Counted from the stretch's first letter, positions 10,175 through 13,820 are shown. The stretch is DNA of 64,000 nt from Sphagnum compactum (GCA_965153455.1 OZ234494.1:2108001-2172000); one strand, 5' to 3'. Notes: a model not told the origin generated them from the sequence alone. Numbers and translations: made by a program.

Positions 10175-12593
10175 TCAGGAGCAGCCACCACTGCTCACTG
10201 AAATCTGTCTACCACTAGTACTGGAACAATTCACTGCCCAATTTTCTATAATATTGCCATCTGCATTGAGATCTGGAACACACCCCTTCATAAGCTGTGG
10301 GGCAATCCCCCTCAGGTAGCCGAGGGTTGAACACCCTTGAAGATTGATGGAGAAGACATAGAAAGTGGGAATATCAGACATTGAAAATCCATTGAAACTG
10401 GATCCAGCAGCAGCTGTGTATGCTCCCATGTCAGGGAAAATGATCCAATCCCCAATGGATAAATCAGGGAGTGATGCACCTTGCAAGACAGTGTCTAGTC
10501 CATCACACGTTGGCCCAAAGACTGTGGAGTTATGAGTGGGAAGACTGCCACAATCACCATGGCAATTATTGTTCTTGGACTCATCTGCCAAACAAATAAG
10601 AGGACGATACTTGAGCACAGCGTGATCATAGAGCAGACAATTCATGGAACCATAGATTCCATCATTGATCCAGTACTCCTTCACTTCTCCCCGCACACGC
10701 TTACCAATGACAGTTGTTGCAAGGGTGGAGGGTGTTTCTGCAAAATAGCGTCCCGGTTCTGCAATAATCTTCACACCCATCTCAAGTGGGAAGTATGCAT
10801 CCAATGCATCATTTACTGCTGCAGCTGCATCCAAGAATTTCAGGCTGCCACTACTTCCAGAAGTAAAGCCACCACCAATGTCTAAAATGTGCATTTTGGG
10901 CAGACCCAGTCTTTCAGATATGTTGAATACTTCACGAGCCGCAGCTATAGCATCAGTAAATGAAAAGGCATCTGTTGCTCCACTGCCAATGTGAAATGAG
11001 ACACCTGCAACCAGAGGTCAAGTTGTGCAACTCAGATGAGATTTGTAGGCAGATCAGATTGGCCAAATCAGTGTAATATAATAATTTCTGACATAGCAAC
11101 CTTGCTGTAAATTTCTACCTTCCAGATATAATTGTTTTCCGTGAAGAAATGGTTTGTGTATCTATAAATTTCACAGTCTGCAGCATGCTGTGGGCAGCCT
11201 AGGATTAAGCAAAATATGGTATTTCCTTGAATGGAATGGTATCAGCAAAAAGGTTGAAGCCTCTTGCTGCAAGATTCATAAGATGAATAGAAGCAAATCC
11301 TGTAAGAACAGTTCACTTCTGCTGGAAAAATGTGCTAGAGACAAGCATTCCAAGTTTTGCTGGAGAGGCTGTGCTATGGCTGGCCATGTCGCAGCAGCAC
11401 TGTTTTTCCAACAAGCACAAGAACTGTTCACCACAAGGTCTCTCATGCAAACAGATGGGGGAGGGATGGTTACCTGCAACGGGGACATGGAGGTTGTCAG
11501 CAACGCGCAGAAGGTGTTCCACTTCGTACATGAGAGCCCCATACTTCACTCCCAATGGACAGCGAGCTCCTCTGTCATCGGTTCGGATGCGCAGCAACAG
11601 AACGGCTCCTGGGTGATGCGCTTTCACTTTGTGCACCTGCGAAGGCGGCGGCCAGCAGGAAAACAGAATTGCTCAGGCTGCCTTTGTGTCACTCAGGCTT
11701 CACAAACATCCCGGATTGGTAACATCCTGCTGAGAAAGCAGTTTGGGAAGGGAGGAGAGGAATAGGAGAAGAAGGTACCTCGCTTTCGGAATCGAAGGTG
11801 GTGAGATTCACGCCCACGGAAGCGGCATAGGCGACGTGCGATTGCATTTTGCAGGGATTTGCGAAAACGATGCGGTCGGTTGCGACGCCGAGATCGAGCA
11901 CTTGCGAGATCTCCGCCTTGCTTGCGCAATCAAAGCCCGCACCGAGAGCCGCCAGTGTGGTAAGCAGCGCTCGGTCCGGGCTGCACTTCACGGCGTAGAA
12001 GGGCCGCACTCTTGGCATCGCTTGCACCCATCCTTGAAACAGTCGAACCAGCAACCCCAAGTCTAGCACGTAGAACGCATCCTCCATTCCATGTTTCTGC
12101 AGGTTGCGAAGGAAAAAAACTCTTGAGAGTCTGTCTCATCGCAACAATGGCTCTCAGAATTACACATAGCAGCACAACAACTTCAAGACGAGCTCCGTTA
12201 GCCTGCTGGGACCGACCCGTCTTCCGAAACCCAGAAATCCATCAAGCGAACGGCGGTCGAGATGAGAGAGCTTCGCCAATACTTGCTAGAAGCTTCACTG
12301 ACGACAAGCAAGTGTGTCATCCGACCGATTGATTGAACATAAAGGAAAAGCCAATCCAGGGCAGAAGCGGAAGGAAGCATTTCTTTGAAGTTGAAGAAGA
12401 AGAAGAAGAAGAAGAAGCAGATTTCTGTGTTTGCAGATTTTTTTGATACCTGGATAGTGGAGCGAATGAAGGAATCGATCTCGACATGTGACCCCGACTG
12501 CATCACGTGCATGGAGCCATAGGCATGTCGTGGGTCGGTCACGCTCATGGACTTGTCATCGCGATCACCACCCCATGCCGAGGTCAAGCCCAT
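10175..12593 (-). CDS. ODC: Ornithine decarboxylase (PLP-dependent, fold type III), 4 coding exons: 12593-12450, 12096-11779, 11636-11474, 11004-10175; 484 aa
   Basis: Manual splicing gives a continuous 1455-nt ORF. Introns are GT-AG: 12449-12097 (CAG|GTATCA...TGCAG|AAA, phase 0), 11778-11637 (GAG|GTACCT...GCAG|GTG, phase 0) and 11473-11005 (G|GTAACC...TTGCAG|GT, phase 1). ODC motifs occur in order: [15 protein letters not shown] (PLP lysine), [72 protein letters not shown] (catalytic Cys), [17 protein letters not shown]. Exon 1 and the exact start codon are less certain than exons 2-4. Confidence 0.93.
12393..12417. repeat. (GAA)n microsatellite in ODC intron 1
   Basis: About 8 GAA units visible; this produces the poly-F run in the 12198..12692 ORF. 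Confidence 0.85.
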
Positions 12594-12740
12594 GATGATC
12601 TTCTCTCTTCTGCTGCCTATCGACGTGAAGGAGTCTGTCACGCTACGAATCCCCCCACGCAACCACAGCGATAGTAGAGAGAGAAGAAGCAAAACAAGGA
12701 CGCAAAAGTAGCAGCAGCAAGGCGCAACAAAAAGCCCCTG

Positions 12741-12852
12741 GACGACGAGGTAAAATCACGCGACTCGAGTGGCTGTTGTGCCCACCCGGATAGCGTTTTG
12801 TACACCTTTCAATCCATCGCCGGAACCGAGTCCCCCCAACTCCACCCCCGGC
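12741..12852 (-). promoter_or_regulatory. GC-rich double stem-loop RNA element in the ODC leader
   Basis: Pairings found by eye. Hairpin 1 (12852-12819): GCCGGGG/UUCCGGC plus GAGUU/GACUC. Hairpin 2 (12821-12741): GGCGAUG/CGUCGUC, AGGUG/UACCU, ACGC/GCGU and CGGGUGG/CCACUCG closing a GCACAACAG loop. Confidence 0.5.
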
Positions 12853-12935
12853 AAGAAACCGGTGCGGCTATGAGAAGGGGGATACGAAAAGTCCGCCGCA
12901 ACCGCCAAAACTTTCGCGTAACAACTCCACCGAAT
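12756..12935 (-). promoter_or_regulatory. Candidate non-AUG (AUU) upstream ORF in the ODC 5' leader, 59 codons: IRWSCYAKVLAVAADFSYPPSHSRTGFLPGVELGGLGSGDGLKGVQNAIRVGTTATRVA*
   Basis: Open frame from ATT (12935-12933) to TGA (12758-12756), in the same frame as the ODC AUG. It lies in a GC-rich, AUG-depleted leader. The start codon is inferred by analogy with AUU-initiated uORFs of animal and fungal ODC homologues. Confidence 0.5.
12809..12817 (-). promoter_or_regulatory. Minimal uORF AUG-GAU-UGA (Met-Asp-stop) in the ODC leader
   Basis: Only ATG on the minus strand between 12594 and 13746. Context GCGATGG has G at -3 and G at +4. Confidence 0.7.
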
Positions 12936-13489
12936 ATCAAAGACAGCGGAGAGAAGTCAGTCAGAGAGAGATAGAGAGACAGAGACAGAGAGAGTTGGAG
13001 ACCCTCCGATCCGATGACTTCACCCCCACCAAGTACGCAAACAAAGAAAGGTTTACCTGATCACAACAGCAAAATTCCCAAATGCTACAACAAAGAAAAG
13101 CTCTGATAAGGGACACCCAAAAACAGAAAGATCACGTCAAGAACTGGAGCTTTGCACTACTAGAGTTACAAGTCCCAGAACTGTTGCCAAAAGGCTTGTT
13201 GTTGTCTCGGAGCTCACAAACTGGAATACCAAAACACAGGAGGGTTGTTCCAATAGAGCGAGAGTTGATAGACTATTGAAGGCAGAACCAGAAGAATCAG
13301 AACAAAACTCAAACCCAACAACAACAAACAACAACTAAGAAAGCCTTCTATGAAAAGAACAAGCGCTTGGAAATCGACTACTCGGGCAACGAGATCAGGT
13401 GTTTGGGAGTGGAGACAATATGGAAAAACTACAACCCAACAAAGCACGACCCCTTAGAGACGGGTCGCGAGTTCCGACGAGGTAGGGCG

Positions 13490-13820
13490 CTTCTAAACTG
13501 AGGCCACAACACGAGGGAAGCTCAAGGTTTTAAGAAGGTTTAGCGAGGGAAGGATGACTGGGCACCCGGGGGAATCGGGGGTAAGTGGGGGCGGGGGGGG
13601 AATTTGAGATGGCAGGCAGAAGGGGCGGATCCTGAGTTGTGGACGTAGGACCGGTTAAGGGGGGCGCCCGGCCTGGTACAACTGGTTTGCTCTACGGCGG
13701 GGGTCAGTCAGTCAAGGGGGTGTGAGGTGGGGGCCGTGGGGTGACGCATACAGGAACCGGTAAATTAAACCAGTCGCTTCCCTTCCTATCGCAACCAACC
13801 GCGCCTACCAAGGCCAGAGG
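13490..13820 (-). promoter_or_regulatory. Probable ODC core promoter (GC/CpG-rich)
   Basis: CpG-rich block upstream of a CT/GT-rich leader. TATA-like CTTCTTAAAACC near 13525-13540 on the minus strand, G-tracts at 13568-13600, TGACG motif near 13742. TSS not determined. Confidence 0.5.

Follow-up and report, generated by a model that had tools for sequence, protein, structure and literature searches.

A conserved two-codon uORF cassette as a candidate translational gate in the leader of a Sphagnum ornithine decarboxylase gene

What is the role of the GC-rich sequence that surrounds the only upstream AUG (uAUG) in the leader of a Sphagnum ornithine decarboxylase (ODC) mRNA? The question is raised by a 64,000-nucleotide stretch of Sphagnum compactum DNA (GCA_965153455.1 OZ234494.1:2108001-2172000), hereafter the window, with positions counted from its first letter. 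At 12741-12852, on the minus strand, a first-pass annotation described a GC-rich double stem-loop whose two hairpins partly compete, which would bury the uAUG, span the stop of a uORF and thereby act as a ligand- or ribosome-responsive switch resembling a polyamine riboswitch. The choice of this spot as a candidate for translational control was well founded, since it coincides with a block that is conserved across four ODC lineages. The competing double stem-loop itself has not withstood comparison: its stability is that of shuffled sequence, it matches no Rfam family, and many of its pairs are lost in relatives.

The gene on the minus strand of the window was identified as ODC by a protein search with exon 2 (11779-12096), which is 98% identical to a Sphagnum magellanicum protein containing PF02784 and PF00278 and 60-70% identical to the ODCs of many land plants. 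Exon 1 (12450-12593) begins with the main ATG at 12593, comprises 48 codons (MGLTSAWGG...) and is separated from exon 2 by intron 1 (12097-12449, 49 spliced reads); intron 2 follows at 11637-11778 (37 spliced reads). The transcript evidence consists of stranded polyA RNA reads from the public run X24, 561 of which were placed, nearly all in the orientation expected for minus-strand RNA. Coverage is unbroken from 12450 to ~13487 and drops to a depth of 0.17 in 13488-13558, and the only two splice joints observed both lie in the coding part. Because coverage continues to ~13487 without a break or a joint, the leader is taken to be ~890 nt long and to retain 12741-12852 in the mature mRNA; we place it at 12594-13480 (~887 nt, without intron), its 5′ end at ~13480 being estimated from coverage alone. 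A 5′ splice site at AAG|GUG was considered and rejected, as no joint of this kind occurs among the 561 reads. Read depth increases ~1.8-fold 3′ of ~12780, from 42 in the more 5′ part through 52 to ~80 in 12707-12777, a step that may be due to GC-rich coverage bias or to extra transcription starts 3′ of the uAUG. A (CTT)n microsatellite is present in intron 1 (12380-12426) and a CT-rich tract in the leader (12953-13002); read placement passed over both as repeats. At 13269-13270, also in the leader, all six orthologous loci described below contain ~50-62 extra bases, none of which forms an ATG, and X24 reads and an X21 contig likewise have additional sequence there; this therefore points to a deletion in the window or an insertion in the relatives.

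The claim of a single uAUG proved correct: the 907 nt that precede the main ATG contain one ATG, at 12817. This ATG opens the two-codon uORF AUG-GAU-UGA (MD*; 12809-12817, minus strand), has a G at both -3 and +4, precedes the main AUG by 224 nt and does not share the frame of the main ORF. By its size and its place in the mature 5′ UTR, the uORF falls among tiny uORFs, in which ≤10 codons separate the AUG from an in-frame stop. By eye, its sequence, AUGGNUUGA, resembles the start of the main ORF, AUGGGCUUGA (12584-12593, MGL...), minus one base; this may be chance, or may hint at the origin of the uORF.

As a description of the window sequence, the double hairpin is accurate. The letters and stems of both hairpins are as annotated, hairpin 1 (12819-12852, minus strand) reading GCCGGGG-GUG-GAGUU-GGGGG-GACUC-GG-UUCCGGC from 12852 to 12819, and the two do share the GGC at 12821-12819. 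The minimum free energy (MFE) structure calculated with ViennaRNA for the 112 nt approximates the double hairpin, at -41.5 kcal/mol; folded alone, hairpin 1 reaches -16.1 kcal/mol and hairpin 2 (12741-12821, minus strand) -28.5 kcal/mol. The inner part of hairpin 2, from AGGUG to UACCU (12807-12749), forms 18 pairs at -20.1 kcal/mol and begins 11 nt downstream of the A of the uAUG. The 112-nt stretch lies in the GC-richest region of the leader (0.58-0.60), which also has the most negative folding energies (-41 to -45 kcal/mol per 112 nt); GC is 0.49 over the whole leader and ~0.6 only in the 180 nt around the uAUG. The predicted stability is nevertheless unexceptional by the shuffling standard that had been set for it: dinucleotide shuffles fold at -37.4 ± 3.2 kcal/mol (z -1.29), 22 of 200 folding as well as the window, and the best z of all 112-nt windows slid along the leader, found here, is -1.4. 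A 407-nt leader segment does surpass its shuffles (z -2.94, with 0 of 100 as stable). In this fold and in a 312-nt fold of the window, hairpin 1 gives way to pairing of its G-runs with a C-rich tract further upstream, and the inner stems of hairpin 2 persist. An Rfam search of 12000-13600 on both strands at E up to 10 returned no family and nothing on 12741-12852, the best match being snoZ178 with E 0.58 and 19.2 bits against a gathering score of 100. Lastly, the GCG-UGA said to place the uORF stop within hairpin 2 is indeed present (12756-12758), but this stop belongs to a 66-codon frame that has no AUG.

For comparison, 80 loci were collected from one metagenome scan with exon 2, of which 14 are moss-type and the remaining 66 are angiosperm, gymnosperm, algal and further ODCs. 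The moss-type loci fall into four lineages that have in common the position of the exon 1/intron 1 boundary and the MGL start. Lineage A (L001-L006, exon 2 identity 98-100%) contains the orthologues, with three distinct leader sequences that are colinear with that of the window except for indels; lineage B (L007-L010, 89-90%) is a paralogue; lineages C (L011 and L012, 81%) and D (L013 and L014, 76-77%) are metagenome contigs. That A and B are true paralogues in one organism follows from X18 and X21, single-organism runs in each of which contigs of both types occur. Among the ODC-related proteins, six of 800-876 aa (P0041, P0079, P0088, P0093, P0102 and P0116) have PF01536 fused before PF02784 and PF00278, one such fusion being named from the fern Adiantum capillus-veneris; judging from their domains, these would be fusions of two polyamine-pathway enzymes.

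The uAUG and the ~50 nt after it form the sole leader block that is conserved across the four lineages, the leader outside it being unalignable between them. The conserved core (12765-12829, minus strand), captured in a sequence-only model, R1, reads UCC..G.G-AUGGNUUGAAAG-(0-2)-GUG...ACG..U(G/A)UCC..GG.., so that a UCC ~10 nt upstream is followed by AUGGNUUGAAAG, a GUG and a UGUCC box, which lies +23 to +26 nt downstream in all four lineages and is UAUCC in the window itself. AAG stands directly 3′ of AUG-GNU-UGA. The conservation is at the nucleotide level, with small indels, and extends from ~15 nt upstream to ~45 nt downstream of the uORF. The motif ATGGNTTGAAAG has a single copy in each of 13 moss-type loci, always 5′ of ODC and on the strand of the gene; the fourteenth moss-type locus and the 66 other loci lack it, and the 64-kb window contains it once. 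The matches of R1 in 324,086 bases (E 9e-19 to 9e-11) are confined to the window and these 13 loci. By a rough analytic estimate, such an 11-base motif would be expected by chance in a 900-nt leader at ~2e-4 per lineage. In Salicaceae-type angiosperm ODC loci (L015-L023 and L042), a TATA box lies near -85 and the leader is short and lacks the cassette, which is therefore lineage-restricted.

Within the uORF, variation is confined to the middle base of codon 2: the sequence is AUG-GAU-UGA in A and D, AUG-GCU-UGA in B, where it is opened by the uAUG nearest the main ORF, and AUG-GGU-UGA in C. The AUG, the UGA and the G at -3 and +4 are invariant across lineages, and the distance to the main AUG is 224 nt in A, 187 in B, 255 in C and 311 in D. 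Across the four lineages, no frame of the cassette encodes a conserved peptide. Readthrough of the stop, a +1 shift at GNU-UGA and an overlapping frame started at UUG were also inspected by eye in the four lineages and rejected, the products being of very unlike length and sharing no peptide. A search for exact 7-mers shared by the four leaders left TTGAAAG as the only meaningful one, which the variable base makes uninformative. L013, the moss-type locus that lacks ATGGNTTGAAAG, contains 7 uAUGs in its last 380 nt; a look-alike noticed by eye, GAUUGAAGGUG..UGUC at ~-200 to -160 beside a different two-codon uORF (AUG-AGC-UAG), was not counted, as R1 is silent on it at E up to 10. The window has A at 12791 and C at 12822, which it shares only with X24 (0 of ~50 reads differ); the six metagenome orthologues and the X18, X21 and X1 contigs all have G at both positions, and G at 12791 restores the UGUCC box as in lineages B, C and D. 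In lineage C, L012 contains dense G-tracts (GGGCGGGG..GGGGCGGGCGGGGGGGGGAGGGAGGGG) at ~-105 to -65 before the main ATG, a candidate RNA G-quadruplex.

The leader of the window is transcribed, contains this conserved cassette and is depleted of AUGs. Expected numbers of ATG were obtained from dinucleotide shuffles of each leader (n = 1000). For the 887 nt of the window, 7.5 ± 2.3 ATGs are expected and one is found, a count of ≤1 being reached in 2 of 1000 shuffles. The orthologous leaders of L001, L002 and L004 (933, 916 and 939 nt) also contain one ATG each against 7.3-7.8 expected (1, 1 and 0 of 1000 shuffles with as few or fewer), as do those of lineage C (L012, 930 nt, 6.7 expected, 4 of 1000) and lineage D (L014, 489 nt, 4.0 expected, 48 of 1000). 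Depletion is absent from lineage B, where the 900-nt leader of L007 has 11 ATGs against 11.9 expected, with further uAUGs at -301, -320 and -418.

The hairpins behave differently from the cassette in these relatives. In every one of the six orthologous loci, and in the X18, X21 and X1 contigs, G replaces C12822, an uncompensated change that abolishes the G12849-C12822 pair; a further hairpin 1 change, at 12821, is present in L002 and L003, and the contigs of X18 and X1 have, among the differences listed, at least the additional changes at 12818 and 12823, there being 92 more differences. Because 12822 is G there and not C, hairpin 1 is weaker in the orthologues (-11.8 kcal/mol in L001 and L004, -10.8 kcal/mol in L002). 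Counted on alignment A1, its 13 pairs are kept to the extent of 11-12 in the orthologues, 7-8 in B (mostly by C-to-U wobble), 5 in D and 0 in C, where homologous sequence is absent. The 23 pairs of hairpin 2 are all kept in the orthologues, a result that is uninformative because the sequences are nearly identical there, and 11, 15 and 12 of them are kept in B, C and D, respectively; no homology between lineages reaches the 3′ arms (12741-12762). The structural conservation that a switch was expected to display did not emerge either: the RNAalifold consensus over all lineages reaches only -4.16 kcal/mol, in a comparison of just four lineages that has little power, and in a shuffle control 82.9% of cells were paired as opposed to 79.2%, figures dominated by the four orthologue rows and by a structure derived from the window.

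Individual elements vary in the same way. The central stem CGGGUGG/CCACUCG (12788-12782 with 12772-12766) is kept at 8/8 in lineage D with three two-sided changes, where A-D identity is almost nil, at 6/8 in B with two uncompensated mismatches, and at 4/8 in C. A local hairpin after UGUCC has an energy of -18.4 kcal/mol in D (34 of 500 shuffles as good) and -11.4 kcal/mol in A (not significant), and is weak in B (-4.8 kcal/mol) and C (-8.9 kcal/mol). The G of the uAUG and the next G are predicted to be paired with a probability ≥0.9 in 7 of 8 folded sequences, their partners differing from lineage to lineage, and the 80 nt after the uAUG fold at -18.5 to -27.2 kcal/mol in the 8 sequences with z from -1.47 to +1.44, the level of shuffles. 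Two smaller structures were rejected: the mini-stems UCC/GGA and GGAU/GUCC around the AUG are each broken in at least one lineage, and a hairpin GCUGUCC..GG(A)ACAGC at +23 to +25, with -4.2 to -7.5 kcal/mol in L001, L004, B and C, -1.4 kcal/mol in the window and no counterpart in D, is indistinguishable from sequence conservation because both of its arms are invariant.

These data make it improbable that two competing GC-rich hairpins form a polyamine riboswitch-like device, responsive to a ligand or to ribosomes, that hides or exposes the uAUG. Such a switch would fit the MFE of the 112 nt in the GC-richest, lowest-energy part of the leader, the z of the 407-nt segment, the predicted pairing of the uAUG G and its neighbour in most sequences, and the two-sided changes in the central stem of lineage D. 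It is at odds with the shuffle-level z of -1.29, the lack of an Rfam match, the feeble consensus, the uncompensated change at 12822 in all six orthologues, the absence of a hairpin 1 counterpart in C, the lineage-dependent partners of the uAUG, the shuffle-level energy of the 80 nt downstream and the weak stem after UGUCC in B and C. A less demanding structural explanation is that any moderately stable hairpin just downstream, whatever its exact pairs, slows scanning so that the uAUG is used, with helicase levels tuning the bypass. Effective hairpins of this uAUG-ds type have 12-20 bp and -19.9 to -34.1 kcal/mol among those described in PMC10499604, a range into which the inner hairpin 2 of the window falls with its 18 interrupted base pairs, -20 kcal/mol and start 11 nt after the A, and the 80 nt after the uAUG fold at -18.5 to -27.2 kcal/mol in 8/8 sequences. 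The downstream energies, however, equal those of shuffled sequence and so give no sign of selection, and the pairs of the moss hairpin are not conserved between lineages; the context of the uAUG is already strong, with no need of help, and the conserved primary sequence (UGAAAG, UGUCC) would be left unexplained. We regard this explanation as unlikely, although less so than the switch.

Explanations that dispense with structure have to account for where the conservation lies. If the block were a protein-binding or a DNA-level (transcriptional) element, with AUG-GNU-UGA incidental, one would expect what is seen, namely nucleotide-level conservation with small indels that runs ~15 nt up and ~45 nt down and specifies no peptide; yet an incidental AUG would then be the lone survivor in the AUG-purged leaders of A, C and D, and the invariant positions include exactly the start, the stop and both context positions. 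To us this seems no likelier than the scanning-hairpin explanation. Residual ancestry in slowly diverging duplicates, with no function at all, is a still poorer prospect and one to which we give little credence. Its appeal comes from the small number of lineages, four, and from the A-B homology island (12763-12935, minus strand; local score 69 vs 25.6 ± 3.5 shuffled), which contains hairpin 1 and most of hairpin 2 and is non-coding, as its gap lengths are not multiples of three. With intron 1 as a neutral yardstick, the last 95 nt of the intron also align between A and B (49 vs 18 shuffled), and hence the wider island proves little. The core shared by four lineages does count: intron 1 scores at shuffle level when A or B is compared with C or D, B and C leaders align over the core only (score 44 vs 24.7 ± 2.0 shuffled), C and D share this core while their introns and remaining leader do not rise above shuffles, and AUG depletion recurs independently. 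Least probable of all, to the point of being nearly negligible, is a uCC-like coding uORF that uses AUU or UUG in place of AUG as its start. The 66-codon frame without AUG (12756-12956, minus strand, ending in GCG-UGA) does offer an in-frame AUU with G at -3 and two adjacent prolines, but it is not conserved. In L001-L003 it has 41 codons, a new in-frame stop separating the AUU from the rest, and in L004-L006 a 1-nt insertion shifts it, giving in L004 a frame of 79 codons with a different C-terminus; indels relative to paralogue B are not in threes, the prolines lie ~40 codons before the stop, far from the C-terminus, and frames started at UUG range from 4 to 33 codons across the four lineages. 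We rejected the uCC-like frame on these grounds.

Based on these comparisons of sequence, our best reading, which we hold with moderate confidence, is that the leader contains a translational gate built on a conserved two-codon uORF cassette and not on the double hairpin. As part of the same claim, the functional unit would be the cassette: AUG-GNU-UGA in strong context, AAG, GUG and the UGUCC box at a fixed distance. We infer that the uORF is translated and that it gates or represses ODC. A 40S subunit scanning the leader would meet no other AUG, and most would initiate at the AUG at 12817. One peptide bond would be made at the uORF and termination would follow immediately, so that ODC synthesis would be set by the speed of termination and by reinitiation within the 187-311 nt that follow. 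This termination or reinitiation step may be set or modulated by the conserved bases that surround the stop and lie downstream of it, possibly with the help of local GC-rich pairing downstream (~-20 kcal/mol in the window), and the polyamine level is a plausible modulator. Because conservation exceeds the uORF, the target of selection may instead be an RNA or DNA motif within which the uORF happens to lie. Several observations weigh against the best reading, namely the limitation of cassette conservation to four independent lineages, the lack of AUG depletion in lineage B, the lack of the motif in L013, the depth rise 3′ of ~12780 and the absence of the cassette from Salicaceae-type loci. Responsiveness of the leader to polyamines is a guess by analogy. 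More specifically, the cassette might be a termination-stall and reinitiation gate that senses polyamines or the activity of hypusinated eIF5A, the ODC-keeping bryophytes having independently evolved uORF feedback; we put this forward as speculation that is rather unlikely to hold.

Short and long upstream frames offer several precedents for such a gate. The original uCC paper reportedly dates from 2008, and a paper on a tomato ODC uORF is said to have appeared in 2001. In PMC10896292, tiny uORFs of 2-10 codons are described as being translated and repressing the main ORF in Arabidopsis, and PMC11915504 describes the AUGUAA of NIP5;1 as an AUG-stop uORF at which the ribosome stalls in response to a small molecule. 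The moss cassette resembles such plant tiny or minimum uORFs in being extremely short and located in a 5′ leader; unlike that of NIP5;1, it has two codons rather than one, a conserved 3′ flank and an ODC gene downstream, and its translation is inferred. uORF control is presented as the rule for polyamine-pathway mRNAs in PMC2811004. [quoted passage not shown] The moss AUG-GNU-UGA of four lineages is comparable, being a two-codon uORF in the leader of a polyamine-synthesis mRNA, but the window leader has no second ATG in 907 nt and no conserved peptide.

The likeness to animal and fungal ODC-family leaders is more distant. Section 6 of PMC2811004 characterizes the uCC as having 22-100 codons, a mostly non-AUG start and a conserved peptide with PP near its end, and within that section it is named only in animals and three fungal groups, with plants unmentioned. 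As with the uCC, an upstream frame in the leader of an ODC-family mRNA is the presumed sensor; unlike it, the long frame of the window is not conserved as coding sequence, its AUU is cut off in relatives, and its PP is ~40 codons before the stop. According to the same section, the mammalian ODC leader is a long, translation-repressing 5′ UTR with a short standard uORF; it shares with the moss leader its length and its short uORF, but the two have no sequence relation and the moss leader has a GC content of only 0.49 overall. A likeness to a GC-rich hairpin in angiosperm arginine decarboxylase (ADC) leaders had also been suggested, and a literature search for such a hairpin found no paper.

ODC is missing from the model moss and from Arabidopsis, as stated in the introduction of bioRxiv 10.1101/2022.09.03.506421, which is why bryophyte ODC leaders have gone unstudied; our literature search for a Sphagnum or bryophyte ODC uORF found no paper. 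The case also teaches that an attractive GC-rich hairpin can wrongly explain a spot that is truly conserved.

Plants are not known to have antizyme. If true, a polyamine-sensing gate in the moss leader would functionally parallel the uCC of animals and fungi, the mammalian MAGDIS and the uORF pair of plant SAMDC in a lineage without antizyme. Feedback on ODC in plants is poorly known, and a nine-base uORF with conserved flanks, whose AUG stands alone in its leader, provides a compact and easily mutated handle on it; in Sphagnum, a keystone peatland genus, the cassette could be used to probe how putrescine synthesis is controlled at translation.
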